Assembly: GCA_964385285.1 (NCBI GenBank)
Contig: CAYLOJ010000007.1
Location: 1 to 61,462 of the forward strand
Direction: 5' to 3'
Source: an uncultured Gammaproteobacteria bacterium
GTDB lineage: Bacteria > Patescibacteriota > Patescibacteriia > UBA9570
Length of the DNA: 61,462 bases
Positions 7,029 through 56,376 of this stretch are shown in pieces; position 1 is the stretch's first letter; each line of letters opens with the position of its first letter. Under the pieces are notes generated by a model. It searched no databases. It saw only the letters and a list, made by a program, of their open reading frames with translations, and was not told where the DNA came from. The translations under genes and the position numbers were made by a program.

Positions 7029-7088
7029 GGACTTACTATACCATAAATTAGGCTTTACAGCAAGGATTTTTTCTGGTAATCTATTGCC

Positions 7089-26802: not shown

Positions 26803-27042
26803 TCAGCAGGGATCGCGGAACTGCGTCCGTTCCACCGCGGGATAAGCCGCGATGTCCTGGTCGTAGTTCTGCATGAGGCGGAGAGCCAGGCCGCGAGCGT
26901 TCTGCTCGAGCCTGGCCAACCGCTTCGCCTTGCTGGTAGCCTTGATCTGCCGAAGCAGCTCAAGGTATTCACGCCACAGATCCGCAGGCGGCGGGGGCGG
27001 GGGCGGGGGCTTCCAACTCGCTACTGGACCGGTGCTAGGCAT
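26803..27042 (-). CDS. GC-rich 79-aa protein with a Pro8 tract and helical C-terminus
   Basis: ORF track. Strong SD AGGAGGAACCG before the ATG. Followed by a GCCCCGA/UCGGGGC hairpin. Confidence 0.55.
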   Translation of the reverse strand: MPSTGPVASWKPPPPPPPPADLWREYLELLRQIKATSKAKRLARLEQNARGLALRLMQNYDQDIAAYPAVERTQFRDPC

Positions 27043-27079
27043 CGGTTCCTCCTAAGAAAACGGGTGAAATCGCGACACC

Positions 27080-27121
27080 ACGCTAGCGCTACTTGACGCT
27101 TTTGTCAAGGCATATTAGAGT
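27080..27121. promoter_or_regulatory. Overlapping divergent promoters built on the palindrome CTTGAC-N6-GTCAAG
   Basis: Minus strand: TTGACA (27103-27108), 17 nt, TAGCGT. Plus strand: TTGACG (27093-27098), 17 nt, TAGAGT (27116-27121). Confidence 0.4.
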
Positions 27122-27198
27122 GTTCGCATGATTTTTGCAGGACTACTCTTAACCACTACCATTACCACAACACGGACATAACGTGGGTAGTTTGTTTA

Positions 27199-27235
27199 TA
27201 AAAAAACGATCGCCCACACAGGGCGATATTTTTTT
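27199..27235. terminator. Bidirectional rho-independent terminator
   Basis: AUCGCCC-ACACA-GGGCGAU hairpin (27209-27227) flanked by A8 and T7. Confidence 0.75.
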
Positions 27236-27347
27236 GCAGACTTCGTATCACCTACTAAAGACTCACATCAACTGCGCTGATTGTCCTGCGGGAGGGATTC
27301 CACTCTCCCCCAGAACCTGTCACGCGTAGTGACTGGAGGACGAGACA

Positions 27348-27539
27348 ATGTCTACGTATTACGGACAACTGATGGAAGCAGAGTTGGCGGTGCGTGGCCT
27401 GGGCCCTGATGGCAAGCCACTGCAGGGTGACCCAGACATGCATGGCGGCCACCCGGACGCAAGCCCGGACCCCGTGAAGCCGGCGGAAGGCTCGCCTCTG
27501 CCGGCGACGAACGAAGAAGAGGGCTACCACATGCCGTAG
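27348..27539 (+). CDS. GC-rich 63-aa acidic Pro/Gly-rich protein
   Basis: ORF track. SD UGGAGGA lies 7 nt upstream of the ATG. Preferred over the two antisense ORFs. Confidence 0.5.
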   Translation: MSTYYGQLMEAELAVRGLGPDGKPLQGDPDMHGGHPDASPDPVKPAEGSPLPATNEEEGYHMP

Positions 27540-27559
27540 TGAAGGACGCGGCGAGGAGC

Positions 27560-27602
27560 AGGAGGAATTGAGCGCCGCTAGATTTCAGATCTGGCCGCGC
27601 TC
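27560..27602 (+). other. 3' module of the 27348 gene: AGGAGGAA plus a long hairpin (same orientation as its plus-strand ORF)
   Basis: AGGAGGAA at 27560-27567. GAGCGCCGCUAGAU-UUC-AGAUCUGGCCGCGCUC at 27570-27602. Confidence 0.5.
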
Positions 27603-27642
27603 TTTCCATTTCTGAACAGTGTTCAGGATGCGTAACTTTGTC

Positions 27643-27671
27643 TTGACAATGGAGCTTTCTTTCAATAGTCT
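27643..27671 (+). promoter_or_regulatory. Sigma70-type promoter of Y1 RNA
   Basis: TTGACA, 17 nt, TAGTCT. Confidence 0.5.
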
Positions 27672-27676
27672 GGAGA

Positions 27677-27868
27677 TGTTACTTTTTCATTCCCGTGTGT
27701 TTAAAAAGGTACGCACCTTCAAGCAACGACTCGAGATCAGCCCTCTAGCGGGTTTGGCCACATTCCCCATGGAAATGCGGCACTGCACGTGTAGTCGTGC
27801 CTGACAGCTGTCAGATTATTTTACGATTTTATTTAGTTTTAATGCGACAGGTCACCAGCCTGTTTTTT
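27677..27868 (+). ncRNA. Y-family structured leader/sRNA, copy Y1 (terminated ~75 nt before the FG-GAP gene)
   Basis: Homologous to Y2 and Y3 (GCACCUUCAAG, GGGUUUGG, UUCCCCAUGG blocks). Ends in ACAGG-UCACCAG-CCUGU plus U6. Confidence 0.5.
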
Positions 27869-27944
27869 GTTTGTAGTATCACAAGTCCTAACGATGCGAC
27901 TTATGCGTTGGACCATAATCTGATTAACGATTAAACTGAATTAT

Positions 27945-30098
27945 ATGTATAAAAAAATCCTCTTAACAGTTAGCGTTGCCCTACTAACGGGCTTAGCAAT
28001 TCCTCACCAGGGTAAGGCAACCAGTGCCTATGACCTACCAGAAATTTCAGGTGCCATCAACTCTGATGCTGCCGGTGATACTGTCGCCAGTGGAGATATC
28101 AATGGAGATGGCTATGATGATTTGCTCATTGGAGCCAGTGGTTACCATGAATTTGGGGGTGCCGTTTATCTGTTTTATGGCAGTGAGACTTTGATCACCG
28201 ATACTAGTGTGACAACAGCGGACGCGACCTTCGATGCCACTGATGCCCAATATGCTGGTTCAAATTTAACGACTGGGGATTTTAATGATGATGGTTATGA
28301 TGATATTGTCATTAACGCTAGAAATTATGCTGTCGACGGAAGTACGGTAGGGGCTGTATATATCATCTATGGTCAAGCCGATGCACTCACCTCTTTTCAG
28401 CTGAGCACAAAAAATACCACCCGTATTCGCGGTGATCAAGCCAATGACGCCTTAGATGCTGTTGGAGCAGCTGATTTAAACGGTGACGGTGTGGATGATT
28501 TAATCATTGGCTGCCCCCAGTATGGCAGCACGAATTACGGTGCCATTTATGTAATCTATGGCACAACTGGAGCTGAATTAGATGATGCTACATTATCCAG
28601 CAGCAACATTATTTTAGTAGGACAAAATACATCCGATTACTTTGGTGCTCAGGTCAGTAATGCTGGCGATGTCAATGGAGATGGTTTTGAAGATGTGGTC
28701 ATTGCCGCTCCACGTGATGAAGAAGGATTAAGTCGGATTTGGTTGTTGTATGGGCAATCGGCTGAGTTCTCTGCTGGTACCACCAATATCAGTACGATTG
28801 GCGTGCGCTTTAACAATGAGCACGACGATGATCAGTTGGGAACCGTTGCTTATGGTGGTGATATAAATAATGATGGTTACGATGATCTGTTGGCTGCGGC
28901 TACACAGTACTCCGACACGCTCGCTACCAATGGTGCTGTCTACACTTTACTCGGAAAATCCAGCCACTATACCAACCAATCCATTGCTACTGGTCAGCAG
29001 TATCTTGGTATCGCAGCTCACGATCAAGTGGGCACCGCCCTCACTAGCGGCCAGACTAACGATGATCGCTATAGCGACATAGTGATGTCAGCACAAGTTA
29101 GCAACACAGCTCAACCCGGAATCATCTACCTGATCTATGGAGAGGCTAACCCAATTTCGCAAGCTCTGAGTTTACAGCTGAGTATTGAAGGTAGGTCAGA
29201 TTACGATGAGTTTGGGAATAGTTTGGCGAGTGGTGATTTAAACCATGATGGCTATGACGAAATCATCATCGGCGCTCCAGGTCGCAATTCCTTTTCTGGT
29301 AGTGTCTATATCCTCTACAGCACGGTCGATACGGATGGTGATGGCATTGCCGGAACTGATGGTGTCATCTTCGATGGCGTAGATACCAATGATAATGACT
29401 TTGACAATGACGGCATTACCGATGACTTAGATACCGGAGTTGATACTACCTACGAAATTGCTGATGATGGTTATGACAATGATGGCGATGGCGTTGTGGA
29501 TGAAACTACCAATACTGTAGAGGAAAATGGTACCCACACCGGTTATGACAGCCTGGATCCAAACGATTCGGATACAGCCGCTGCTAATCTCTCGACGGTA
29601 CATGGTCGTAAGAACGGTAAAATTAAAGTTACCTATTCTGACGATTCCTCATATGTCTATACGATCTTCAACCACACTATTTCTCGAAAAACTAAGGTGA
29701 AACAATATAGCGACTTAGGTTACTACGTTGTTTACCAAGCCAATGGTAAAAAAGTGGCTCTAGTTAATGCCTACACGGGCGAGGTCTACAATCGTAAGAC
29801 AGTCAATCGCAAAGCTCGCCGCTATGTGGGATTGCTAGTCACTGATGTTCGTGGCGATGGTCATACTGAAGCGGTGGTTACGAATCGCAAAGGGACGGCG
29901 GTGCAGGTGGCGATCTTCAAAGTGAATACCAGTCGCCAAACCTTAAAAAAACGCTCCAGTCTCAAGCTGACTGATGCCAACATTGCCGTAACTAAGACAA
30001 AGAAAAAAGGCAAAAAAGTATTACTGCGTAATCGAAGCAGTCGGATCCTTTATCGATTAAATACCAACTCACATTACGTATTAAGCTCGGCGGAATAA
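27945..30098 (+). CDS. Secreted FG-GAP repeat protein (717 aa)
   Basis: Signal peptide. More than 7 repeats of the GD(I/V)NGDGYDD type. Host-like GC. Confidence 0.8.
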   Translation: MYKKILLTVSVALLTGLAIPHQGKATSAYDLPEISGAINSDAAGDTVASGDINGDGYDDLLIGASGYHEFGGAVYLFYGSETLITDTSVTTADATFDATDAQYAGSNLTTGDFNDDGYDDIVINARNYAVDGSTVGAVYIIYGQADALTSFQLSTKNTTRIRGDQANDALDAVGAADLNGDGVDDLIIGCPQYGSTNYGAIYVIYGTTGAELDDATLSSSNIILVGQNTSDYFGAQVSNAGDVNGDGFEDVVIAAPRDEEGLSRIWLLYGQSAEFSAGTTNISTIGVRFNNEHDDDQLGTVAYGGDINNDGYDDLLAAATQYSDTLATNGAVYTLLGKSSHYTNQSIATGQQYLGIAAHDQVGTALTSGQTNDDRYSDIVMSAQVSNTAQPGIIYLIYGEANPISQALSLQLSIEGRSDYDEFGNSLASGDLNHDGYDEIIIGAPGRNSFSGSVYILYSTVDTDGDGIAGTDGVIFDGVDTNDNDFDNDGITDDLDTGVDTTYEIADDGYDNDGDGVVDETTNTVEENGTHTGYDSLDPNDSDTAAANLSTVHGRKNGKIKVTYSDDSSYVYTIFNHTISRKTKVKQYSDLGYYVVYQANGKKVALVNAYTGEVYNRKTVNRKARRYVGLLVTDVRGDGHTEAVVTNRKGTAVQVAIFKVNTSRQTLKKRSSLKLTDANIAVTKTKKKGKKVLLRNRSSRILYRLNTNSHYVLSSAE

Positions 30099-30130
30099 TC
30101 CGCTACGTTTTACCTTGCGATACTTCGCCC

Positions 30131-31057
30131 ATGACGGTTCTTACCTTCACACGCACCCTAGGCTTGGCTGGCCTTTTAGTTACCTGCATTGGTTGCAAAA
30201 CCACCGAGCCAGAAAAGCCAATCAGCGCTTCTTCTACTGCTGAAACCGCATTGTGTCAATCTGCAATTACCAGCCCTCGCCTACCCCCGGGAGATGTCTT
30301 AGCATTAGCAAAACAAGCTGATCCTATCTCCTATCAATTCACTCAAGATCACAGCGCGGAAATCATTCCTGTTGATGACAACAAAAGTTTTGCAGTGTGG
30401 TGGCAACCCGAGGGGTTTGATCCGGCCACAGATACTGTCTTAGTGAATTTACATGGCCATGGTGAGTGGGCCACCAGGGGTTTTACGGTTTGGCATGATC
30501 AACTCATGGAACACTCCTATGCTCACCTCGGTCTACAATGGTGGTTTGGACGCAGTTTAGAATCGAATGGCTATTATGATCCAGACCAAATTTATCGTTT
30601 GATCACAGAACAACTGGCGGCACATCACATTCCTCCAGGGCATGTGATCTTTGAAGGCTTTAGCATGGGCAGCGCACGATCGTATGCAGTTACCTTACGT
30701 GATGCATTGTGTGGGGAACATTACTTTGGTGTCACTATCGCCAATGCTGGACCGTGGGAAGATGACTATGACACAAATGCTGAAGTGCTAGCTGGTAATT
30801 ATGGCGCCACCCCGTACGCAGGCACAGACTGGATTTTGTTTTGTGGCGAACAAGATGAGAATGCCTATGCACATAGTACATATCCACATGTCTGCGATGG
30901 AATGGATCATACCAAAACTGTGTTGGAAGCGTACGGTGCCACAGTAGATCTTTTGTTAAAGGATCCAACCGGTAACCATGGCAGTATGATGCTACACCCC
31001 GAAAATACCAATACTGTACTGTATGCGGCCGAAAAAATTTTGGTTGGCCAGAACTAG
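30131..31057 (+). CDS. Lipoprotein alpha/beta-hydrolase (esterase / PHB-depolymerase-like)
   Basis: Lipobox LVTCIGC. Nucleophile elbow GFSMGS. Confidence 0.6.
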   Translation: MTVLTFTRTLGLAGLLVTCIGCKTTEPEKPISASSTAETALCQSAITSPRLPPGDVLALAKQADPISYQFTQDHSAEIIPVDDNKSFAVWWQPEGFDPATDTVLVNLHGHGEWATRGFTVWHDQLMEHSYAHLGLQWWFGRSLESNGYYDPDQIYRLITEQLAAHHIPPGHVIFEGFSMGSARSYAVTLRDALCGEHYFGVTIANAGPWEDDYDTNAEVLAGNYGATPYAGTDWILFCGEQDENAYAHSTYPHVCDGMDHTKTVLEAYGATVDLLLKDPTGNHGSMMLHPENTNTVLYAAEKILVGQN

Positions 31058-31383
31058 TGACGTGTAGATCGCTTCTGTAGAATGCCCCGTACTGATGGGC
31101 TAATCGCTTTGTCTTTACGATGAATGCAACCGATCCAACAGCATGGACGGCGCATCCCCTCTTTCAATTCACTGACGACACGTTTTACATGCTCGGCTCG
31201 AGTGTCGGCTTTTTTTGGAAAGGTTGTCCAACAGATCCATTCATTACGCGCTAACGGTGTTAAACTCTCCCACAACTTGAGAGCGGTTTTATCTTTAGTC
31301 AGTGCAGTTCCTAAATCGGTTGGTAGTTGGTGAACGGTACCACTAGCAATGTGTTGGGTGGTTGTCATAGACTTTATCAACAA
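31054..31383 (-). CDS. YdeI/OmpD-associated family protein
   Basis: LPTDL...LWESLTPLARNEWICW...RAEHVKRVVSELKEG matches the YdeI-type C-terminal domain. Confidence 0.6.
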   Translation of the reverse strand: MLIKSMTTTQHIASGTVHQLPTDLGTALTKDKTALKLWESLTPLARNEWICWTTFPKKADTRAEHVKRVVSELKEGMRRPCCWIGCIHRKDKAISPSVRGILQKRSTRH

Positions 31384-31395
31384 TGGATTAGTAAA

Positions 31396-32175
31396 CTATT
31401 GCCCTGAAAACAGACGTCCGTAGACATTTAGTTCCGTATACAAATCATCGGCATTTTTCATGGCATCGGAAAATGTCTCCTCTTTAATATCCACCCTACC
31501 TTGATCGTGCAGATCTTCGATGATATCGGGTATATAATCTGCCACGGGATGAGACGCGTTCATAAAGACTAAAATATCTTCTGCGTCCGTAGCCTGATCT
31601 TTAGTCAGTACTTGCTCAAAATAATCCAAGATTCCTGGATCATCATAGTAAATCGTGGATAGAAAACCATTCATCGGACCAGACGGAGTATCCAGTAAAC
31701 CCGATGCTGAAACGCTGATCCCATCCGTCCCGGTTACTTTATAAGTGTACAGATCAAAAAAATCGCCAACTAATTTTTTTTCTGCCTCTACTCGCTCTGT
31801 GGCAGGCAAATTACCAATGGTTTGACTAAGACGAACATAGTCCTGTTGCATGCGCTTTTGCAGGGCACTTAATTGATCGCGATCGTACTGCAATTGATCC
31901 AGGTAAGACTTAAGAGCGTTACTGGTGGTATCAAAATCACGTTTTGCCTGCTCGTATGCGGCTACCGGCGATTGTTCTGCACGGTGTTCAGCCTCTGGCA
32001 TAGTACGTCGCGGAAGATCTGCCTCTACTTCGGCAGGAGCGTGTTGCACAACAGGCTCGAGTGGATGCGGCGCCTGATCCAAATGCGCATCTGATGATAA
32101 TCCAGCAAATACTAATGGGATCAAACGTTTAAGCCTGTCTGGTCCTTGTCGCTTCGGCATTCCACCTTCACGCAT
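31396..32175 (-). CDS. Hypothetical protein
   Basis: ORF track. Host-like GC. Candidate promoter TTGACG at about 32235-32240. Confidence 0.55.
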   Translation of the reverse strand: MREGGMPKRQGPDRLKRLIPLVFAGLSSDAHLDQAPHPLEPVVQHAPAEVEADLPRRTMPEAEHRAEQSPVAAYEQAKRDFDTTSNALKSYLDQLQYDRDQLSALQKRMQQDYVRLSQTIGNLPATERVEAEKKLVGDFFDLYTYKVTGTDGISVSASGLLDTPSGPMNGFLSTIYYDDPGILDYFEQVLTKDQATDAEDILVFMNASHPVADYIPDIIEDLHDQGRVDIKEETFSDAMKNADDLYTELNVYGRLFSGQ

Positions 32176-32254
32176 ATAATATGTATTTAAGTACTCAATC
32201 GATGATGAAATACTATCCTTAGATAGTCATGAACGTCAACTGAAATTTACTTTA

Positions 32255-32320
32255 CACCTCCTGTATGAATCATACATGACCCTTACGGGAGGTGGGGCGA
32301 CGGCTTGAAAGCAGTCACCC
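32255..32320 (-). other. Structured 3' region of cassette H
   Basis: CACCUCC...GGAGGUG 7-bp stem (32255-32294) enclosing a UGUAUGA/UCAUACA palindrome and a CC-GUAA-GG hairpin. GGGGUGAC/GUCGCCCC hairpin at 32294-32320. Confidence 0.4.
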
Positions 32321-32354
32321 CGACAACACGATGGCAGCGACTGCTACTTGAACC

Positions 32355-32993
32355 CTACTGAGCGCTCATCATCCGGATGTACGCCACCTGCGCACCTTCG
32401 GCCGTCGGGTCAAAGGAGTAGGTGGCGGCGGTCGGAGCAACACTGCGCGTGGCAGAGATGCTCTTGGTTCGCATCGTGGACGAAGAAGCCGAGACGAGCT
32501 GGACGTGGTTGCGTCCCAACTGCTGCGACTCCCGCGCGACGATGTAGTTGAGCGCGAGGGTGTCGAGCGGAGTCCGGGAGTAGACCAGGTAGAGGTCCTC
32601 CTGGCCAAAGGGCGGGTTGATCTGCAGCGGGGAAGCTTCGGTACCGAACGGCACGGTACCTCCAGCGATAACGTAGTTGGACTCTCCGTCGTATGGAAAG
32701 ACCAGTGCCACGTTTGAAGCAGAGTCAACGTTGACGAGGTACACGTACCCCGTCTGCTGGATGGTCGCCACCATCCAGAGCTTCTCACCGTTGTGGAAGA
32801 TCCGCTCCGGATCCACAGCGCCGGACATCGTCTGGTAAGTGACAGTGGCAAGGTTGGTGGGTGCCTGGATCACACCGAGGCACTTCGCGCCGGGCGGACA
32901 CGCGTAAGCGGGCGTGACTGTGACAAGGGCGAGGAAGAAGACGACAAGGAGCAACCACTGGGGCAGTGTCTTGAAGTCATTGAAGGTAGACAT
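32355..32993 (-). CDS. GC-rich secreted protein, DUF4384-like
   Basis: Signal peptide ...LLLVVFFLALVTVTPAYA. GYVYLVNVDSASNVALVFPYDG resembles the DUF4384 core. Start set at the ATG at 32993; the track TTG is at 33011. Confidence 0.6.
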   Translation of the reverse strand: MSTFNDFKTLPQWLLLVVFFLALVTVTPAYACPPGAKCLGVIQAPTNLATVTYQTMSGAVDPERIFHNGEKLWMVATIQQTGYVYLVNVDSASNVALVFPYDGESNYVIAGGTVPFGTEASPLQINPPFGQEDLYLVYSRTPLDTLALNYIVARESQQLGRNHVQLVSASSSTMRTKSISATRSVAPTAATYSFDPTAEGAQVAYIRMMSAQ

Positions 32994-33040
32994 GGAATCT
33001 CGATTTGCCAACGCGCGTTGATGGCATCTAGGGTAGGGGT

Positions 33041-33200
33041 AAAAAAGGAATGGTCGCGCGCCAACAGTTAAGCATTGCTATGCCAGTCTGATGCAGCGCG
33101 GCCATTCATTTAGTAGCAGTCAGTTGTTAATGATCGTGTCTAAGCGTCGTTTCGGGAATTACTGTCTTCTGGAAGAAGATAAAATCACCAGCAAAAACGA
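33041..33200 (-). ncRNA. Terminated structured leader upstream of cassette H
   Basis: Starts after promoter P_H. CGUCGUUU/AAACGACG helix. Long GAAUGGCCGCGC / GCGCGCGACCAUUC stem followed by U6 (33041-33107), about 50 nt before the ATG. Confidence 0.4.
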
Positions 33201-33206
33201 CGTCAG

Positions 33207-33235
33207 ATGGTACCATGATTTTTCCACTTTGTCAA
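33207..33235 (-). promoter_or_regulatory. Sigma70-type promoter P_H
   Basis: TTGACA (33230-33235), 17 nt, TACCAT (33207-33212). Confidence 0.5.
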
Positions 33236-33255
33236 TGGCTAAGATAAACTAGTTT

Positions 33256-33320
33256 GTAGACTACTGTCTTCAGAATTTGAACCCTATTGTGCAGGCGTTG
33301 CGGCAGTGGCAACAAGTTTT
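33256..33320 (-). repeat. R repeat copy R1 (resembles a tRNA 3' half)
   Basis: Minus strand AAAACUUGUUGCCACUGCCGCAACGCCUGCACAAUAGGGUUCAAAUUCUGAAGACAGUAGUCUAC, followed by the palindrome AAACTAGTTT and the promoter. Confidence 0.7.
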
Positions 33321-33365
33321 AACTTCTTTAAGCTTACCCTTTAGTACTTTTCGTTATATGAATAT

Positions 33366-33863
33366 TCAGTATGTTAGGGCTTCAACAAGGGCCTTGCAAA
33401 AACGCTCTTGCCGCAACACAACACCCTTAGTATTGTGCCATGAACCGTCTCCAGGAATATATAACACGTGTTGACCATGCGCATCCCGATAGATCAGCTT
33501 TACTGCAACAGCGCTGCCATACGCAGTGATGATATGTTGAACGCTAGCAGAGACCACATCTGATTTATTGATACTAATGTTATCCATCGGCTGAAGAGCT
33601 GTGAACGTATAAACGCCCTTCATACAGGTAATACGTATATACCAGGGTGCAATAATTTTACGTCTAGTCGCGTACACAAAAAAAATGCCTAGCACAAACA
33701 TAACACCAACCCCTAACACACTGAGGGGCTCATCGCTACTAACAGGAATTTCTCCCTGAGCCCACAGCCAAATAAAACTACCAAATAATAGACTCATGAT
33801 AACAGGAAAAAATAAAATAATGCCTAGCCGGTCACGAGTTGAATGTCTCCTTTCAAATTGCAT
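33366..33863 (-). CDS. Hypothetical membrane protein (2 N-terminal TM helices)
   Basis: ORF track. Host-like GC. The ATG lies 9 nt after R2 with no promoter in between. Confidence 0.6.
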   Translation of the reverse strand: MQFERRHSTRDRLGIILFFPVIMSLLFGSFIWLWAQGEIPVSSDEPLSVLGVGVMFVLGIFFVYATRRKIIAPWYIRITCMKGVYTFTALQPMDNISINKSDVVSASVQHIITAYGSAVAVKLIYRDAHGQHVLYIPGDGSWHNTKGVVLRQERFCKALVEALTY

Positions 33864-33871
33864 ATAGTAAT

Positions 33872-33936
33872 GTAGATTCCTGTCTTCAGAATTTAAACCC
33901 TATTGTACAGGCATTGCGGCAGTGGCAGCAAGTTTT
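33872..33936 (-). repeat. R repeat copy R2
   Basis: About 85% identical to R1. Lies between hammerhead 1 and the 33863 ORF. Confidence 0.7.
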
Positions 33937-33950
33937 AGCCGGTTCAATTA

Positions 33951-34016
33951 TCCCCTTTCGTCCTTAATCTTGCGATCTAGACTCGTCAGTTTAGGCATTA
34001 CCTAAAGAGGGTGATG
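33951..34016 (-). ncRNA. Type III hammerhead ribozyme, copy 1
   Basis: Minus strand CCCUC^UUUAGG-UAAUG-CCUAAA-CUGACGA-GUCUAGAUC-GCAA-GAUUAAGGAC-GAAA-GGGG. All core nucleotides are present (CUGANGA, G10.1-C11.1, GAAA, A15.1-U16.1, C17). Stems I and II are loop-closed and stem III is open. Predicted cleavage between 34007 and 34006. Confidence 0.8.
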
Positions 34017-34101
34017 AGTGGGGCCTTGGGTTGCAGGAGACGTTGGAACGTTCGCCGCAACACACGTAGGTCCCACCCGCCCTCATACACCATCTGTCCT
34101 C
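34017..34101 (-). other. Conserved structured domain between the cassette-I stop and hammerhead 1
   Basis: Homologous to 36536-36610. Helix GUGGGACC/GGCCCCAC and inner ACGU-UCCA-ACGU hairpin. Confidence 0.5.
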
Positions 34102-34482
34102 TTACTGGCAGCTCACCTCCCAGCCACCGAACGGCTCAGCGGCTCCGATGATGAATGACGGTTCGGCCTCTGGTGCCTGCGGGCATTGCACCCGCCACTC
34201 GTCCGCGAGCGCCTTGGCCCGCTTGATACTGAGCGGCGGGTCCTGGAACGCCTCTTCACTCATCTGGGTGCCGAGTGAAGTGACATGACAGCGCTTGTCA
34301 CTGTGCTGCTTCCAGAACGCGCAGGCAGACCCCAGGTCGTACTTGACGGCCTTTCCATCAGGGCCGAGAGTCGACGAATTCTTCTGATAGAGTACGAATC
34401 CGCGGACTGCGTTATCGGCAGGCATAGCAGCCATGATGCTGAGAACGATGAGAAGAGTGAAGGCAGTCTTGAAAGTTCGCAT
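34102..34482 (-). CDS. GC-rich secreted 126-aa Cys-containing protein (cassette I)
   Basis: ORF track. N-terminal signal-like helix MRTFKTAFTLLIVLSIMAAMPA. Confidence 0.6.
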   Translation of the reverse strand: MRTFKTAFTLLIVLSIMAAMPADNAVRGFVLYQKNSSTLGPDGKAVKYDLGSACAFWKQHSDKRCHVTSLGTQMSEEAFQDPPLSIKRAKALADEWRVQCPQAPEAEPSFIIGAAEPFGGWEVSCQ

Positions 34483-34513
34483 GGGCGCCTTATCCAGGTG
34501 GTGAGAGATACCG

Positions 34514-34564
34514 TTCCACCTGCTTACAGCTGACTTCTAAAAAATCAGATCTAAGCAAGTGGAA
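34514..34564 (-). promoter_or_regulatory. Conserved 13-bp leader hairpin followed by CUCACCACCUGG, upstream of cassette I
   Basis: UUCCACUUGCUUA...UAAGCAGGUGGAA. Homologous to 37137-37186. Confidence 0.45.
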
Positions 34565-34591
34565 CGAGTAATGTATGAGGGTTGTAAAGAA

Positions 34592-34774
34592 CAAAAAACA
34601 GGCGGTTAGCCTGCGTTGTGGAATAGAGAATGAATGGTTGTTTGGCTCGTACGATTACCTCGTACAGTGTCACATTACCATAGGGAACGTGACCAAACCC
34701 ACTTCATAACTTTTCCATTCAGTTATGCTAGTAGTTACTTGAAGGTGCATGTTTTGAGGCATGTCCTCAAAAAC
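34592..34774 (-). ncRNA. Y-family structured leader/sRNA, copy Y2
   Basis: Promoter TTGACA (34804-34809), 17 nt, TATAGT (34781-34786). Four hairpins. Terminator CAGGC-UAACC-GCCUG plus U6 at about 34593-34613. Confidence 0.55.
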
Positions 34775-34817
34775 AGTGGCACTATACTCATGCATATGAG
34801 TTATGTCAAGAATTGCT

Positions 34818-34883
34818 GTAAACCACTGTATTCAGAATTTGAACCCCATTGTACAGGCGTTGCGGCAGTGGCAACAGGTTTTA
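34818..34883 (-). repeat. R repeat copy R3
   Basis: Lies directly upstream of the Y2 promoter. A 12-nt R-end fragment (AGAGUCUACAUA) also overlaps the stop codon at about 34929-34940. Confidence 0.7.
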
Positions 34884-34939
34884 CGGCCTGTATTGGCTTG
34901 ATTTAATAGCCACAGCATTTTTGGAGAATTATGTAGACT

Positions 34940-36250
34940 CTATGACTGCATTGGATACTTAGCCATGAACGCTTCTAACTCGGCAGATAATTTAGCTTGT
35001 TCGGCCTGTAAACGTGTGTGTTCAGCCTGAGCTTGATCTAGCTCGTCGCCATATTGGTTTAAGTGGGGATCAATTGCTTTTTGAAAATCTGCATGTCTAG
35101 CCGCTTGATCGTGTGCCTGGTACTGGCCACGTGGCAAGTTATGTTGCCAAATGTTTTTCTCTACCCGCGATACTTGAAACCAACCAATGGCAGCACCTGC
35201 CGCTGCCCCTAACGCAGCCATTGGAATGTTTGGTTCACCAGTCTGCCCCACGTTGTACATGACACCCGCCATGCCCATAATGCCAGCAGTACCTAAAGTG
35301 ATATGCGCTACCTTTAACATTTCCCAAATTTGATGAGCAGTTACCCGTAATTGAATAGAGGCATCTCTTGCATCATAGGCATGTTGGCGAGCTGCTAAAT
35401 ACTGCTCAGCATCTTCTGCATCTACCGCTAATTCAAAATATTGTGCCAGCAATTCATTCAAGCGTTGGCCAGCCGTACGTATCTGTTCAATTAAGTTGGT
35501 CACTGCTGGTTCGGGTTCGTTGACTGCAGGTTGGCGCGGATCTTTGAATTTCACGTTACCATCACTCCCCAACCGATCAATTTCTAACTCTATCTCATGA
35601 ATTTCTTCTCGCAAAGATCGTAACTCTTCAGTCAGAGTAGTAATTTGTAGATTGCGATTTTCTGGAGTACCAGCGCGTTGTTCCGCCCGGCGTTGTTTGG
35701 CAGCTCGATAGCGTTCTAATTCTGGGTACTGAGCAAACCAACGCTCAGAATAATCGTGAGATTCCTCCATACGCGACAAACCAAATTCCACCGCTGAACC
35801 AGCCATGGCCCCACCAGCTGTGGCCAACGCTGTCATGGCAGGATCCTTAGTGAGCATATACGCTCCAGCACCAACACCAGTGCCTATAATTGAACTAGAA
35901 GTAACGTAACGTGTTACTGCCCAAGCCAGTTTAGCTGCTTTAGCTTTTATCTCGGCAAAACGTTGAGAATTTTGATTAAGTTGTTCAAGTGCTTGAATAC
36001 TGCGTTCTGCTCCTTCCTGAGCTTGCAACAATTTATAGTAGTGACTTAAGGCACTATCAAATTTTCGACCTGATTCTGCTAAATAGTCCAAATAGGCCTT
36101 TAAGGTTTCTGGAGTGGCTTCACCTTGGAATTCTAAAAGATTTTTAGCATGCTCTTCAGGTTGATGGTTAGGCAACGCAACCTTTGGTTCCAAATGGACT
36201 ATCGGTTCCGGTGGACGACGAAAGGGTTGACGAGTACGTTCAATACTCAT
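34940..36250 (-). CDS. Hypothetical coiled-coil protein with two glycine-zipper membrane segments
   Basis: ORF track. GTGVGAGAY...GGAMAGSAV and GTAGIMGMAGV...LGAAAGAAIGW. Confidence 0.6.
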   Translation of the reverse strand: MSIERTRQPFRRPPEPIVHLEPKVALPNHQPEEHAKNLLEFQGEATPETLKAYLDYLAESGRKFDSALSHYYKLLQAQEGAERSIQALEQLNQNSQRFAEIKAKAAKLAWAVTRYVTSSSIIGTGVGAGAYMLTKDPAMTALATAGGAMAGSAVEFGLSRMEESHDYSERWFAQYPELERYRAAKQRRAEQRAGTPENRNLQITTLTEELRSLREEIHEIELEIDRLGSDGNVKFKDPRQPAVNEPEPAVTNLIEQIRTAGQRLNELLAQYFELAVDAEDAEQYLAARQHAYDARDASIQLRVTAHQIWEMLKVAHITLGTAGIMGMAGVMYNVGQTGEPNIPMAALGAAAGAAIGWFQVSRVEKNIWQHNLPRGQYQAHDQAARHADFQKAIDPHLNQYGDELDQAQAEHTRLQAEQAKLSAELEAFMAKYPMQS

Positions 36251-36251
36251 A

Positions 36252-36416
36252 TTAGGATTGTGTGGATCTTAGTTGAGCTTGGATATCATCAGAAAAAGAT
36301 TCGATGTCCTGGTTCAGTTGTTGAAAGGCTAATTTCACTTCTGCAGGAGAAGCTTTACCCTGAGCGATTTTCTCGCACAAGTCATCAAAGTTTAATGGAG
36401 TATTATCATTCGCCAT
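36252..36416 (-). CDS. 54-aa hypothetical protein, translationally coupled to the 36250 ORF
   Basis: Hand-translated MANDNTPLNFDDLCEKIAQGKASPAEVKLAFQQLNQDIESFSDDIQAQLRSTQS. Its TAA stop lies 1 nt before the next ATG. Confidence 0.45.
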   Translation of the reverse strand: MANDNTPLNFDDLCEKIAQGKASPAEVKLAFQQLNQDIESFSDDIQAQLRSTQS

Positions 36417-36431
36417 AAATAGATATAGACA

Positions 36432-36459
36432 ATTTTAGCAGATTTTAGGAAAAAATCAA
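36432..36459 (-). promoter_or_regulatory. Candidate promoter for the 36416 operon
   Basis: TTGATT, 16 nt, TAAAAT, immediately downstream of hammerhead 2. Confidence 0.4.
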
Positions 36460-36470
36460 GCGCAAATGAT

Positions 36471-36535
36471 TCCCTTTCGTCCTTGATCTTGCGATCTAGA
36501 CTCGTCAGTTTAGGCATTACCTAAAGAGGGTGATT
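36471..36535 (-). ncRNA. Type III hammerhead ribozyme, copy 2
   Basis: Same core as copy 1. The single stem II difference (GAUUAAGGAC to GAUCAAGGAC) converts a G-U pair to G-C. Predicted cleavage between 36526 and 36525. Confidence 0.8.
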
Positions 36536-36610
36536 GAGTGAAACCTTGGGTTGAAGCTGACGTTGGAACGTCACCAGCAACACACTTAGGTTCCACTCGC
36601 CCCTCATACA
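36536..36610 (-). other. Conserved structured domain between the cassette-J stop and hammerhead 2
   Basis: GUGGAACC/GGUUUCAC replaces GUGGGACC/GGCCCCAC of copy 1 (compensatory). GCUG/CAGC replaces GCGG/CCUGC. Confidence 0.5.
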
Positions 36611-37108
36611 CTAGTACCGCATGCACACCTGCGCCGTCAGCTCTTCACAGTTCGCAACGTGTGAATCTGGAGTACTCGCGAGACACTGTTCGTACAGGTA
36701 TCGAGTAGCGACGGGGGTGCACAGAGTGGTTGGATCGAACTGTTCGTAGTCCGACCACGGAGCCATGATCGGCCACTCATCCCACTTCGTTGGCATTCGA
36801 CCCAACTGCAGCGCGCGCCAGTTGCAGTTCGACTCGAGTGCGAGAAGTTTGATACTGGCACCCTGGGTATTCATCAGAATGACCTGCATCTGCTCCTCGT
36901 CACACAAAGGCGGCGGGTGCAATGTAGCGTCCATTTCCGTGAGCATGTACCGGAAGAGATCGGACATCGCCCGCTCTCTATCAAGTGACAACTCGAGCTT
37001 GTGAATCTTCTTGGCCTGCTCGATGAGCGCGTCCTGCTTTCGATGAGCGCACCCGCTGCTCAGGAGGATGATGAGGAGGACGACGATGGTCTTCAGCTGT
37101 GTGTACAT
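36611..37108 (-). CDS. GC-rich lipoprotein, 165 aa (cassette J)
   Basis: Lipobox LLSSGC. Seven further Cys. SD GGGAGAG. Confidence 0.65.
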   Translation of the reverse strand: MYTQLKTIVVLLIILLSSGCAHRKQDALIEQAKKIHKLELSLDRERAMSDLFRYMLTEMDATLHPPPLCDEEQMQVILMNTQGASIKLLALESNCNWRALQLGRMPTKWDEWPIMAPWSDYEQFDPTTLCTPVATRYLYEQCLASTPDSHVANCEELTAQVCMRY

Positions 37109-37136
37109 TTGTCTCTCCCAGGTGGTGAGATTAGGG

Positions 37137-37186
37137 TTCCACCTGCTTACAACTGACTTCGTAAAATCAGCTCAAAGCAGATGGAA
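37137..37186 (-). promoter_or_regulatory. Conserved leader hairpin followed by CUCACCACCUGG, upstream of cassette J
   Basis: Homolog of 34514-34564. The downstream UCUCACC...GGGAGAGA could sequester the SD. Confidence 0.45.
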
Positions 37187-37212
37187 CAGATAGTGTATGA
37201 AGGTTGTAAAGA

Positions 37213-37401
37213 ACAAAACAGCAGGTGTTTCACCTGCTTTCACATTACGATTGATTGTACTCATCTAGACCTCTTTACAGGCAACGCGATTAACTCGCGC
37301 GGTACTACGCCACCATAGGGGGTGTAGTCGAACCCACTTGAACCTGTGTTCAAGTTGTTTCTAGAAAGTGCATGTTTTTACAGATGTGTATTCTGTAAAA
37401 A
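37213..37401 (-). ncRNA. Y-family structured leader/sRNA, copy Y3
   Basis: Promoter TTGACA (37431-37436), 17 nt, TACCAT (37408-37413). Terminator GCAGGUG-AAA-CACCUGC plus U-run at about 37214-37237. Confidence 0.55.
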
Positions 37402-37460
37402 CGCGCCATGGTACACCAAAATACATGTTTTGTCAAGACCTAATAGACACTGCTTTGTAT

Positions 37461-37525
37461 GTAGACTCTGTCTTCAGAATTTGAACCCTATGGTACAGAC
37501 GTTGAGGAAATGGCGGCAGGTATTA
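37461..37525 (-). repeat. R repeat copy R4 (most diverged)
   Basis: ...ACGUCUGUACCAUAGGGUUCAAAUUCUGAAGACAGAGUCUAC, upstream of the Y3 promoter. Confidence 0.6.
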
Positions 37526-37573
37526 GTATTCACTAGCTCTATTCACCTCTATTGAGATGAACACAGTATGCGT

Positions 37574-37602
37574 GAGAAGGGGGTAGCTCTTCTCGTCCTC
37601 CA
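37574..37602 (-). other. Cassette-L 3' module: UGGAGGA plus hairpin
   Basis: GGAGGA at 37596-37602. GAGAAG/CUUCUC stem at 37574-37594. Preceded by the CGCACAU/AUGUGCG hairpin. Confidence 0.45.
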
Positions 37603-37660
37603 ATGTGATTTGCGCACATCTACCCCTGGATCATGGAATGATCAATGTGCGACTAGATCT

Positions 37661-38203
37661 CTACTTCCGCCGGCGGAATCCAAACAGCGGGAAGAGCAGC
37701 GTTGCTGCGAAAGTAATACCTTGATTACATCCTCCGCACTCGACAGAATCCTTGTCGTCTCCCGTATCGCTCTCCCCAGAATCGATCTCGACCGACTGGG
37801 TGTAGAGGTTCACGCTGGTGCCGTCGACGAAAACCGCGAGGGTCGAATCCCGGTTTCCCTCCAACCAGGCCTCGTAGAGGCTCTCGGGGATGTACGCCGT
37901 GAACTCGTCACCGGTCAGGTCATAGTCGAAGTCCTCCCGCCCGTTGGGGAAGAGATCCGACTCACTGGCCCACGTGGACAGCCATTCGTAGTTGCAGACC
38001 TCATCGCCGTCGTCGAGCAGGAAGTTGTACACGACCTGGATTGAGTCGTAGCCGCTTGGGCTCTCGACGCCCGGGGTGAACGAGTTGGCATCGACCACGA
38101 TGGCGGTCGCCGACTCGCAGAATGCGTCGTTTGAGCCGTCGGCTCCCATGGTGTAGTCAGCGTCATCGGCGAGTGCTGCCGACAGGAACAATGAAAACAA
38201 CAT
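37661..38203 (-). CDS. GC-rich secreted acidic protein with a MYXO-CTERM/GlyGly-CTERM-like sorting tail (cassette L)
   Basis: Start moved to the ATG at 38203 (MLFSLFLSAALA signal peptide, SD UAGGAGAG). C-terminus ECGGCNQG-ITFAATLLFPLFGF-RRRK. Confidence 0.6.
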   Translation of the reverse strand: MLFSLFLSAALADDADYTMGADGSNDAFCESATAIVVDANSFTPGVESPSGYDSIQVVYNFLLDDGDEVCNYEWLSTWASESDLFPNGREDFDYDLTGDEFTAYIPESLYEAWLEGNRDSTLAVFVDGTSVNLYTQSVEIDSGESDTGDDKDSVECGGCNQGITFAATLLFPLFGFRRRK

Positions 38204-38316
38204 CACTACTCTCCTACTACTTCTGCTGGAACATTCCAGCAGCCAAGCAACTTTTCGAGTTACGAGGACTAAATAGACTATCGCGTAATCTATTCCATCC
38301 CAGTAATTCGACAAAC

Positions 38317-38460
38317 AAAAAAGACCCTTACTGGGTCATTTCCTAAAAACCTCTTCATCAGAGGGAACAACGACCGGATGGTCTTTTGTTTTGAGTGTTG
38401 TTAACGGAGTGCAGCCTAGCTCCGTCTCGTTACGTAACGAGATTAAATTTTCAATGAGGC
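38317..38460 (-). ncRNA. W-family structured leader/sRNA, copy W2
   Basis: Hairpins UCUCGUUAC/GUAACGAGA, CGGAG/CUCCG, AACAAC...GACC-AUCC-GGUC...GUUGUU and CCUCU-GAUGA-AGAGG. Terminator GACCC-AGUAA-GGGUC plus U6. Confidence 0.5.
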
Positions 38461-38464
38461 CAAC

Positions 38465-38493
38465 AGGTTAAGGCAAAATGTGATTTTTGTCAA
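38465..38493 (-). promoter_or_regulatory. Sigma70-type promoter of W2
   Basis: TTGACA (38488-38493), 17 nt, TAACCT (38465-38470). Confidence 0.45.
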
Positions 38494-38513
38494 TAGGTAA
38501 CGTAAACTAGTTT

Positions 38514-38578
38514 GTAGACTACTGTATTCAGAATTTGAACCCTATTGTGCAGGCATTAAGGCAGTGGCAGCAAGTTTT
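38514..38578 (-). repeat. R repeat copy R5
   Basis: It occupies exactly the position that the tRNA-Glu 3' fragment occupies in the W1 unit. Confidence 0.7.
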
Positions 38579-38602
38579 ACAGTTCGTAAACTGAATATAA
38601 AA

Positions 38603-39266: not shown

Positions 39267-39437
39267 GTACTTCTCACAAAGACGTCCTAAACCGTCCCCT
39301 ATTTTTCAAGCGTTGTGGACTAGCTGTTCAGGCAGCTATTTTTAGCACTACTGGTTGCTACTAAAACTAAAGTCCTGACTGTATCCCTAAACATACAGAG
39401 ATAAAGTTAGAACGTTACTTTAAGAAACTAGGCAATA

Positions 39438-39581
39438 AAAAAAGACCCTTACTGGGTCATTTCCTAAAAACCTCTTCATCAGAGGGAACAACGACCGGAT
39501 GGTCTTTTGTTTTGAGTGTTGTTAACGGAGTGCAGCCTAGCTCCGTCTCGTTACGTAACGAGATTAAATTTTCAATGAGGC
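39438..39581 (-). ncRNA. W-family structured leader/sRNA, copy W1
   Basis: Part of a ~203-bp direct repeat (39438-39640 versus 38317-38519) with only 3 mismatches, all in the promoter spacer. Confidence 0.5.
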
Positions 39582-39585
39582 CAAC

Positions 39586-39614
39586 AGGTTAATCCAAAAT
39601 GTGGTTTTTGTCAA
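39586..39614 (-). promoter_or_regulatory. Sigma70-type promoter of W1
   Basis: TTGACA (39609-39614), 17 nt, TAACCT. Confidence 0.45.
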
Positions 39615-39634
39615 TAGGTAACGTAAACTAGTTT

Positions 39635-39654
39635 GTAGCCCCACAGGGAATCGA
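39635..39654 (-). repeat. 20-nt duplicate of the tRNA-Glu 3' end (att-like direct repeat)
   Basis: gtagccccacagggaatcga is identical to 39793-39812. It cannot fold as a tRNA on its own. Confidence 0.8.
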
Positions 39655-39750
39655 CCACTCCGCCCAATTCAGAAATTGGGCTCCGGGCCGGGGCTTGTGC
39701 TCGTCTGTCACTGACAGCCGTGCTCGCCCGTTCGATTCCTCCACGAACCA
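39655..39750 (-). other. Orphan GC-rich fragment without an ORF, carrying a GGAGGAA + hairpin module
   Basis: Minus strand GUGGAGGAAUCGAACGGGCGAGCACGGCUGUCA-G-UGACAGACGAGCAC... It lies between the two copies of the tRNA 3' end. Confidence 0.4.
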
Positions 39751-39751
39751 C

Positions 39752-39792
39752 AAAAAAATAAAAACCCCACGGATGTGGGATTTTTATTTTTC
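39752..39792. terminator. Bidirectional terminator after tRNA-Glu
   Basis: CCCAC-GGAU-GUGGG hairpin (39766-39779) flanked by A- and T-runs. Confidence 0.7.
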
Positions 39793-39793
39793 G

Positions 39794-39865
39794 TAGCCCC
39801 ACAGGGAATCGAACCCTGGTTTGAGCGCTGAGAACGCTCCGTCCTAACCGTTAGACGATGAGGCC
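39794..39865 (-). tRNA. tRNA-Glu(CUC)
   Basis: 72-nt cloverleaf folded by hand: GGCCUCA/UGGGGCU acceptor, GUCU/GGAC D stem, GAGCG-UUCUCAG-CGCUC anticodon arm, 4-nt variable loop, CAGGG-UUCGAUU-CCCUG T arm. CCA is not encoded. Confidence 0.85.
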
Positions 39866-47551: not shown

Positions 47552-47565
47552 AAATCATTAATGAT

Positions 47566-47590
47566 ACAAAAACGCTCCCGAGCGGGAGCG
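47566..47590 (-). terminator. Attenuator terminator about 15 nt upstream of leuA
   Basis: CGCUCCC-GCUC-GGGAGCG plus U5. Confidence 0.6.
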
Positions 47591-47619
47591 TAGTTCTTGT
47601 TGTTTAACAATAACCTACA

Positions 47620-47679
47620 CTACCCGCGGTTGAGCGTAAGGAGGTTAAGGCCTAATTGGATTCGAATCGGCTGAATCAT
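47620..47679 (-). CDS. Candidate 19-aa Leu/Ile-rich leader peptide MIQPIRIQLGLNLLTLNRG
   Basis: Hand-translated. It has 5 Leu and 3 Ile codons and lies between ilvN and the terminator. The upstream GCGGG can pair with the CCCGC of the terminator arm. Confidence 0.35.
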   Translation of the reverse strand: MIQPIRIQLGLNLLTLNRG

Positions 47680-47710
47680 TGGCCTACTGTATACCTACCC
47701 TACTAGACTG

Positions 47711-47944
47711 TCAAGCTAGTTCTTCGAGTTGAATGACGGGAACGAGCCGTTCTAATTTGCGCATAGCCACTGCCAAATTGTCGCGTTGATTACGCACATG
47801 CAATGTCATCTGCTCGGTTCCATCCGTCTGATAACTCCGTTGTACCTGGTCAATTTCGATATCGTATTTTCGTAACAAGACGGTTACTCGCGCGAGTAAG
47901 ACGGGCTCTGTCACTGCAGTGATTTGTAACGTGTGTGCTTGCAT
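47711..47944 (-). CDS. ilvN: Acetolactate synthase small (regulatory, ACT) subunit, short form
   Basis: 77-aa ACT-like domain directly after ilvB. Confidence 0.7.
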   Translation of the reverse strand: MQAHTLQITAVTEPVLLARVTVLLRKYDIEIDQVQRSYQTDGTEQMTLHVRNQRDNLAVAMRKLERLVPVIQLEELA

Positions 47945-56160: not shown

Positions 56161-56192
56161 AGAGTGTTGGGTTGGAAAGTTATTGTATTAAT

Positions 56193-56322
56193 CAAAACGG
56201 CTGCTTAGTGAGCAGCCGGTGGGATTCAATGGAGTTGTGTGAAGTTTACGCCAATGCCGACTGCCTAATAGAGGAGCTAATAATGCCGATAATACTAATG
56301 TTGAGGCGTGCAGTAAACATTG
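56193..56322 (-). ncRNA. Candidate ~130-nt sRNA, or the long 3' UTR of the carboxypeptidase gene
   Basis: TTGACA (56352-56357), 17 nt, TACCAT (56329-56334), directly after the 56377 stop. Terminator CGGCUGC-UCACUAA-GCAGCCG plus U4 at 56194-56218. No ORF. Confidence 0.3.
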
Positions 56323-56376
56323 ATCCGAATGGTACAGGGCTAATAAAAAAATGTCAATTTCGCTTGTGAATAATCG

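Follow-up and report, generated by a model that had tools for sequence, protein, structure and literature searches.

Organization of the Y units

The window analyzed here, the whole 61,462-nt stretch of contig CAYLOJ010000007.1 from an uncultured bacterium (assembly GCA_964385285.1), contains three homologous units, Y1–Y3, with predicted transcript lengths of 185–196 nt (Table 1). Their homology is clear by alignment, and within the window the core motif GGGTTYGNNNACNNNCCCYATGG is found at three places and no others, compared with 0.04 occurrences expected from shuffles. The original prediction had described three terminated RNAs here, each with its own strong promoter and an intrinsic terminator 75–110 nt before an open reading frame. 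All three were found at these places, with the ends of Y1 and Y2 shifted from 27868 and 34592 to 27872 and 34590. Upstream of each unit lies a near-consensus promoter in which 17 nt separate a perfect TTGACA from a −10 hexamer of the form TAnnnT, and the 3′ end of each unit consists of a short, G+C-rich hairpin and then a U-tract. These terminators lie ∼75 nt (Y1), ∼108 nt (Y2), and ∼104 nt (Y3) upstream of start codons at positions 27945, 34482, and 37108, respectively. The described order of promoter, RNA, terminator, and gene is real at the Y copies. The Y terminator stems are short (5–8 bp), and the energies of their arm duplexes range from −5.4 to −13.8 kcal/mol.

Table 1. Coordinates of the Y units, their downstream genes, and features of the region adjoining tRNA-Glu
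Feature	Position	Strand	Description
Core motif GGGTTYGNNNACNNNCCCYATGG	27750–27772 (+), 34678–34700 (−), 37313–37335 (−)		
Y1 promoter	27643–27671	+	TTGACA-17-TAGTCT; read by eye and by pattern scan
Y1 RNA	27677–27872	+	P1 5′ hairpin, P2, junction, P3, P4, P5 hairpin, A/U-rich linker, terminator, U-tract
Y1 internal elements	junction GGGUUUG 27750–27756; P3 27757–27781; P4 27785–27800; terminator 27846–27864	+	
Gene after Y1	27945–30098	+	717-aa FG-GAP repeat protein; Pfam FG-GAP E = 3.5e-42; N-terminal signal peptide read from the translation
Y2 promoter	34781–34809	−	TTGACA-17-TATAGT; 11 of 12 consensus positions
Y2 RNA	34590–34774	−	P1 at 5′ end, block 1, P2, junction, P3, P4, linker, terminator, U-tract
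Y2 internal elements	junction GGGUUUG 34700–34694; P3 34693–34669; P4 34665–34649; terminator 34614–34598	−	
5′ UTR after Y2 terminator	34483–34589	−	∼21-bp hairpin (GUUCCACUUGCUU.../...AAGCAGGUGGAAC) and CCACCUGG element adjoining the ribosome-binding site
Gene after Y2	34102–34482	−	126-aa orphan protein, signal peptide, no Pfam family
Y3 promoter	37408–37436	−	TTGACA-17-TACCAT
Y3 RNA	37213–37401	−	P1, block 1, P2, junction, P3, P4, linker, terminator
Y3 internal elements	junction GGGUUCG 37335–37329; P3 37328–37304; P4 37300–37284; terminator 37238–37220	−	
5′ UTR after Y3 terminator	37109–37212	−	homologous to the UTR after Y2 (repeat families D9, D14)
Gene after Y3	36611–37108	−	165-aa orphan lipoprotein, lipobox LSSGC
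Upstream element, five copies	33264–33322, 33880–33938, 34826–34884, 37468–37526, 38522–38580	−	repeat families D1, D2
'E' leader family	38302–38517, 39423–39638	−	promoter TTGACA-17-TAACCT, several hairpins, two tandem terminator-like hairpins
tRNA-Glu	39793–39865	−	Rfam gathering-level match

A co-oriented gene with a signal peptide follows 36–110 nt downstream in all five Y copies (the three window copies and two orthologues of Y1 described below). The products encoded after Y1, Y2, and Y3 all begin with signal peptides, in agreement with the secreted proteins originally predicted, and the proteins after Y2 and Y3 are unrelated to each other. The ∼105-nt untranslated regions (UTRs) between these two terminators and their open reading frames are 84–90% identical (repeat families D9, D14), and no σ70-like promoter was detected between the Y2 or Y3 terminator and its open reading frame. 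The FG-GAP gene downstream of Y1 has no Shine–Dalgarno sequence. A candidate promoter of its own, TTGGAC-18-TAAACT, was read from the sequence and ends 7 nt before the ATG, a spacing equal to that at the leaderless leader peptides of the window. Hence, this gene may be expressed from its own promoter as a leaderless mRNA. At positions 27930–27947, and at positions 6270–6312 of a related contig (L173), several genes and leader peptides start 6–8 nt after a TAnnnT hexamer with no Shine–Dalgarno sequence, a pattern that suggests leaderless translation to be common in this lineage.

Conserved structure and covariation

Covariation was assessed on five full-length sequences, the three window copies and the two Y1 orthologues, in a structure-blind MAFFT alignment. 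From this alignment, RNAalifold independently predicted helices P3 and P4 and the terminator. Helix P3 comprises 10 bp with a one-base bulge, and two invariant C-G pairs close its CYAU loop. P4 comprises 5–6 bp with a GNUARU loop, and the terminator helix has 7 bp in the consensus. The conserved core is thus ordered as junction GGGUUYG, P3, ACN, and P4. Together, P3, P4, and the terminator are paired in 96.4% of the alignment cells.

Compensatory double changes were found in 12 of 22 pairs, compared with 5.4 ± 1.6 in shuffled alignments, none of which (0 of 500) reached 12. Little of the evidence from Y is independent, as Y1 and the two copies from relatives are orthologous to one another, and Y2 and Y3, together with their UTRs, are duplicates. 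Controls with slid partners gave only 0–2 pairs with double changes, and a model-fitted alignment gave 9 of 19 pairs compared with 3.2 ± 1.3. Every stem pair quoted in the original prediction is present, and the covariation claimed there for the three copies stands well above chance after the two orthologues are added. Y is a genuine covarying structured RNA family. Helices P1 and P2 are found in every copy, but their registers and lengths differ; P1 begins at about position +2 of the transcript. The folding z-scores are −3.7 for Y2 and −4.3 for Y3, and only −1.1 for Y1.

The core is the most conserved segment (85–96% identity among orthologues, 59–76% among paralogues), whereas conservation is lowest in the linker from P4 to the terminator (24–67% overall, 43–67% among orthologues). 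This linker is A/U-rich and unstructured, and its length stays at 35–46 nt despite the change in sequence. Three conserved single-stranded blocks had been proposed, of which GGGUUYG is the only one that is a conserved single-stranded seed common to all five sequences. Block 1 (AUGCACYUUC, extended here to AUGCACYUUCWAG) is 76–88% identical among the three window copies; it is mismatched in Y1 (ACGCACCUUC) and is not kept in the two orthologues, which share only 53–59% identity with Y1 in this segment. The third block, CCCYAUGG, is not single-stranded but forms the top of P3, namely the two C-G pairs that close the CYAU loop.

Relation to known RNA families and occurrence in relatives

A search of the window against Rfam 15 at gathering thresholds matched only tRNA-Glu and no Y copy. 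At E ≤ 10 over positions 27000–38500, nothing overlapped any Y copy, in line with the original remark that Y could not be matched to a known class. That Y is not a T-box also holds, given that Rfam contains a T-box model and returned no match, and that the downstream genes encode FG-GAP and orphan secreted proteins. The name Y RNA is a label only, and nothing links Y to the Ro-associated bacterial Y RNAs: Rfam gave no match of any kind to Y, and no Ro/TROVE (rsr) match was found among the ∼45 window open reading frames scanned.

Relatives were reached through proteins, with orthologues of the neighboring 308-aa protein and of the FG-GAP protein leading to contigs of related uncultured bacteria; for one neighboring gene, a 55%-identical orthologue is labeled “Patescibacteria group bacterium” by NCBI. 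In covariance-model searches, Y1 (core 27708–27803) was matched with 99–102 bits and Y2 (34646–34753) and Y3 (37281–37376) with 98 bits each. On the loci of these relatives, a model derived from the three copies of the window recovered two further members, both orthologues of Y1, in a JGI metagenome contig (L120, positions 4703–4797, 64.8 bits) and in assembly GCA_041910155.1 (L172, positions 7124–7220, 69.7 bits). Each of these copies lies upstream of an 808-aa FG-GAP gene and has a TTGACA-17-TAnnnT promoter and a terminator; L172 even shares the unusual −10 hexamer of the Y1 promoter. In addition, one Logan contig (L119) is identical to Y2.

In more distant relatives (L121–123, L173–180), no Y was detected near the orthologous genes with the covariance model, including runs with filters switched off on L173 and L174. 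Scans of metagenomic and viral sequences that required block 1 plus the core gave no match; block 1 was later found to be unconserved in the orthologues. A metagenome scan with the core only returned 48 loci, none above 30 bits, and the best of them (L145) is a chance match inside a desulfoferrodoxin-like open reading frame. The 118 loci obtained with a 23-nt degenerate motif in genome contigs were all chance-like (∼280 expected), and blastn of the Y2 unit against phage and plasmid collections gave no match. As far as the available data show, only three genomes contain the family. Y is a new, narrowly distributed family of orphan structured leaders or small RNAs (sRNAs).

Alignment with L173, which has no Y, shows that the Y module and its promoter either occur together, directly before the FG-GAP start codon, or are both missing; in L173, the FG-GAP orthologue begins where the Y promoter would be. 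The idea that a promoter in L173 is homologous to that of Y1, so that the Y promoter would simply be the promoter of the gene, was dropped after this alignment. Directly upstream of the Y1 module lies a high-GC open reading frame with a product ending in GY(H/P)xP, followed by a strong Shine–Dalgarno sequence (AGGAGGAA) and a tiny open reading frame encoding MSAARFQIWPRSFHF before its stop codon. This pair is kept in three genomes (27348–27615(+) in the window, L172 ∼6900–7060, and L173 5938–6260).

A variable region adjoining tRNA-Glu

Y2 and Y3 are located inside a variable stretch of ∼8.5 kb (31–39.7 kb) that adjoins tRNA-Glu and is absent from the corresponding place in relatives. Y1 lies outside this island and is conserved at the orthologous position in two further genomes. 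The island is built from recurring modules: five copies of an upstream element, interchangeable leaders, a common 5′ UTR, unrelated open reading frames, and a common 137-nt 3′ element. Nearly every gene of the island has some promoter–RNA–terminator unit in front of it, with leaders of the Y type (two), of a second type termed 'E' (two, 96% identical), and of one other type. The 'E' copies precede genes for an acidic secreted protein of 217 aa and for a 177-aa protein that carries MopE-like metal-binding repeats.

The upstream element (60–95 nt; ...TGCCACTGCCGCAACGCCTGYACAATRGGGTTCAAATTCTGAAKACAG...) is found 21–36 nt, a variable distance, upstream of −35 hexamers, and the copy at 34826–34884 stands in front of the Y2 promoter. 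Its part GGGTTCAAATTCTGAA has five matches compared with 0.62 expected, and no match to the element was found in viral sequences. The element resembles a partial tRNA-like copy at 39640–39700 and may be either an integration or duplication remnant at tRNA-Glu or a binding site for a regulator. The 3′ end of tRNA-Glu itself is partly duplicated (39632–39659 compared with 39790–39817), 158 nt downstream of the tRNA and at the edge of the variable region, a putative att-like signature. No integrase was found among the window open reading frames scanned. The 137-nt elements (33946–34082 and 36465–36602; 81–96% identical) follow the unrelated open reading frames downstream of Y2 and Y3 and form a long G+C-rich imperfect hairpin without a U-tract. 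Their arrangement appears cassette-like, with variable open reading frames between conserved flanks. Elsewhere, in an otherwise housekeeping stretch, positions 3926–6478(−) encode an 850-aa protein with weak similarity to coupling proteins of the VirD4/TraD type. The window also encodes ilv, leu, and thr enzymes, DnaK, and aminoacyl-tRNA synthetases.

Terminated leaders elsewhere in the window

The layout of the Y units recurs in the window. At nine of 16 TTGAC[AGT]-N16–18-TAnnnT sites, a hairpin with a U-tract follows on the same strand within ∼95–180 nt, whereas only 9–11% of background positions are similarly followed by a terminator. One of these leaders runs from 47714 to 47591 (−), with the promoter TTGACA-17-TACAGT and, ∼6 nt later, an ATG that opens the peptide MIQPIRIQLGLNLLTLNRG. 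Its candidate antiterminator (GCGGGUAGUGUAGG pairing with AACUACGCUCCCG) has −16.9 kcal/mol, compared with −7.4 ± 2.0 in shuffles, and its terminator at 47591 lies 40 nt before a gene for an HMGL-type synthase (isopropylmalate/citramalate-synthase-like), which is followed by leuC. This unit (47560–47714) was not recognized by Rfam and looks like a leu/ile leader-peptide attenuator on an apparently leaderless RNA.

A second leader, from 56357 to 56218 (−), encodes the Ile-rich peptide MFTARLNISIIGIISSSIRQSALA and has a candidate antiterminator of −17.2 kcal/mol (−9.0 ± 2.2 in shuffles) and a terminator at 56218; the unit (56190–56357) lies upstream of a small open reading frame and a PALP-type (threonine synthase/dehydratase-like) gene. 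Judged from their sequences, at least these two leaders are leader-peptide attenuators of the classical kind, and their antiterminators are highly significant; a strong antiterminator was found in two of the three leader-peptide attenuators examined in the window. From the nine promoters with terminators and from these attenuators, we conclude that promoter, short RNA, terminator, and gene make up the cis-regulatory leader layout of this genome.

Search for a switching mechanism in Y

The original prediction had likened Y to a riboswitch or an attenuator. One part of this comparison stands, as a covarying structured domain upstream of a co-oriented gene was found in five of five cases; the other does not, as a structure competing with the terminator was found in none of the five. 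For none of the five Y sequences did the 5′ arm of the terminator pair with upstream RNA better than in shuffles (the proportion of shuffles with equal or better pairing was 0.59, 0.96, 0.06, 0.98, and 0.25), whereas the attenuators of the window, used as positive controls, were highly significant in the same test. Likewise, no conserved long-range or closing helix linking the Y core to the terminator was found. Pairing of block 1 with the downstream UTR amounts to only 5 bp and is not meaningful.

A leader peptide was also considered and rejected. The AUG of block 1 is present only in Y2 and Y3, where it opens reading frames of 26 and 7 codons, and Y1 and its two orthologues have no start codon there. 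Another candidate, an 11-codon open reading frame that opens with the invariant AUGG, persists in the Y1 group; the changes in it are, however, those that compensate in the stem, and in Y2 and Y3 it stops after three codons.

Some features of Y are those of a stable sRNA, namely a hairpin at the very 5′ end, a nonconserved A/U-rich linker, and a conserved terminator. An own promoter and a Rho-independent terminator, as expected for a trans-acting sRNA, are both predicted from the sequence. A site complementary to Y was not found in the window stretches read, and no candidate gene for a read-through factor was found in the window.

Interpretation of Y as a leader and competing explanations

Sequence alone cannot tell a gene switch from a free-standing small RNA. 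We tentatively favor the explanation, which may well be correct, that Y is a lineage-specific, cis-acting 5′ leader of ∼190 nt, with a terminator that is bypassed only with the help of a trans-acting factor recognizing the P3–P4 core, and that it places a few surface-protein genes under common control. Transcription would start at the near-consensus σ70 promoter, and the polymerase would pass the 5′-terminal hairpin and the conserved core (GGGUUYG, P3, ACN, P4) before meeting the intrinsic terminator ∼35–46 nt after P4, just before the gene for a secreted or surface protein. Most transcripts would end at this terminator, and the downstream gene would be expressed only from read-through transcripts. 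Because Y possesses neither an antiterminator nor a leader peptide, we propose that read-through needs a trans-acting factor that recognizes the P3–P4 core; the role might fall to an antitermination protein that binds RNA, to a small ligand, or to the polymerase itself, in the manner of put or EAR RNAs. On this view, the three downstream genes would represent a small surface-protein regulon. That read-through feeds the downstream genes, is conditional, and involves a factor is what we infer. For a leader count the covariation, the conservation of the core, the steady spacing of 35–46 nt, the association with genes, the lack of any other detectable promoter for the Y2 and Y3 genes, the systematic layout, and the attenuators in the window. 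Against it count the missing antiterminator and core–terminator helix, the sRNA-like traits, the gain or loss of Y as a unit, the possible promoter of the FG-GAP gene, the small amount of independent evidence, and the lack of a factor gene in the window.

Several of these counterarguments would be accommodated if the Y copies were stand-alone, stable sibling sRNAs that terminate unconditionally and act in trans, whether they base-pair or use the conserved P3–P4 core to titrate a protein. We regard this main rival as a real possibility, if a rather doubtful one. It agrees with the near-consensus promoter and the terminator conserved with covariation, with the P1 hairpin at about +2, with the A/U-rich unstructured linker before the terminator, and with a module that is gained or lost together with its promoter. 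The absence of an antiterminator from all five copies, when it is clear in other leaders of the genome, points in the same direction, as does block 1, since its higher identity among paralogues of one genome than between orthologues fits a genome-specific pairing partner. The possible own promoter of the Y1 gene, giving a leaderless mRNA, also counts in favor of this explanation, and the proximity of the genes could be ascribed to a compact, co-oriented genome and to duplication of modules. However, the genes after Y2 and Y3 have no separate detectable promoter, and their conserved UTRs must be transcribed from somewhere. Except for GGGUUYG, the five sequences share no conserved single-stranded seed, and the window stretches read gave no target complementary to Y. 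Moreover, promoter–RNA–terminator units before nearly every gene of the 31–39.7-kb stretch are more naturally explained as leaders than as one sRNA per gene. The stable-sRNA traits and the missing downstream promoters would be reconciled by a dual function, in which Y is a constitutively leaky attenuator that restrains the downstream gene, and its terminated product accumulates and acts in trans, like some riboswitch-derived sRNAs. The short terminator stems make such leakiness plausible, but the strong conservation of the P3–P4 core would be left unexplained, and we judge this combination to be improbable. Finally, the Y copies might be DNA-level repeats, such as integration or duplication remnants by tRNA-Glu, with hairpins that matter as DNA and an RNA without function. 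The setting of Y2 and Y3 in an island full of repeated modules (upstream element, common 5′ UTR, and common 3′ element) would suit this explanation, which is nevertheless very improbable: Y1 lies outside the island and is orthologous in two genomes, the compensatory changes preserve a G-U-tolerant RNA pairing, a promoter and a terminator bracket every copy, and the phage and plasmid collections contain no match.

Comparison with known regulatory RNAs

As a leader, Y shares the order of promoter, covarying RNA, intrinsic terminator, and gene with orphan riboswitch candidates and with terminated leaders of the Firmicutes type. As in these systems, one kind of leader is found at several unlinked genes in a regulon-like manner. 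In contrast to these systems, competition between terminator and antiterminator was not found in Y, and 35–46 nonconserved nucleotides separate the core from the terminator. Y also differs in its extra 5′-terminal hairpin and in that its downstream genes, which encode secreted proteins without an assigned function, offer no metabolic context from which to guess a ligand. The leader-peptide attenuators of the window (thr, leu, and ilv type) resemble Y in promoter type, in length, and in the position of the terminator before the gene. However, they have a leader open reading frame at about the transcription start that is rich in the regulatory amino acid and, in two of the three cases examined, a strong antiterminator, whereas Y has neither.

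Processive antitermination RNAs, such as put of phage HK022 and EAR of the Bacillus eps operons, and the leader hairpins of LoaP-type systems resemble Y as promoter-proximal two-hairpin RNAs before intrinsic terminators. Systems of this kind work without an antiterminator hairpin, and this would explain why none is found in Y. Indeed, the anatomy of Y, with two conserved hairpins before a terminator and no antiterminator, is compatible with a put- or EAR-like RNA. On the other hand, Y showed no sequence or model similarity (nothing in Rfam, whichever put or EAR models it includes, gave a match) and is followed directly by only one or two terminators, and no NusG paralogue or other antitermination factor was seen near Y. 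It is conceivable, though in our estimation unlikely, that the P3–P4 core is the recognition element of an undescribed antitermination system, either as a ligand-binding RNA without a competing hairpin or as a target of a protein or RNA polymerase, that switches on surface or adhesion proteins in a lineage filed by NCBI under the Patescibacteria group.

Sibling sRNA families (Qrr, LhrC, csRNAs) share with Y the paralogous intergenic copies, the own promoter, the 5′ hairpin, the A/U-rich stretch, and the Rho-independent terminator. RNAs of the raiA-motif type likewise lie upstream of a gene and yet are apparently independent RNAs. Y differs from these RNAs in that its members have no common seed and in that every copy has the orientation of the next gene and lies very near it.

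If Y controls read-through, it would offer a first handle on the regulation of surface proteins, likely attachment tools, in an uncultured and poorly understood lineage, and an example of terminator control without an antiterminator. If it is simply a small RNA, it adds one more orphan sRNA family of very narrow distribution. Most strong promoters in the window feed terminated leaders that are absent from Rfam, including apparently leaderless leader-peptide attenuators, which makes the lineage promising for the discovery of new cis-regulatory RNAs and is arguably a more useful lead than Y itself. A further leader at 27093–27245(+) encodes the Thr-rich peptide MIFAGLLLTTTITTTRT, has a terminator at 27209, and gave a weak match (19 bits) to the Rfam Thr_leader model; it lies upstream of a small high-GC open reading frame and not of a thr operon. 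A similar unit, with a peptide ending in ALITTTTTLF, is found at ∼5690–5845 of L173.
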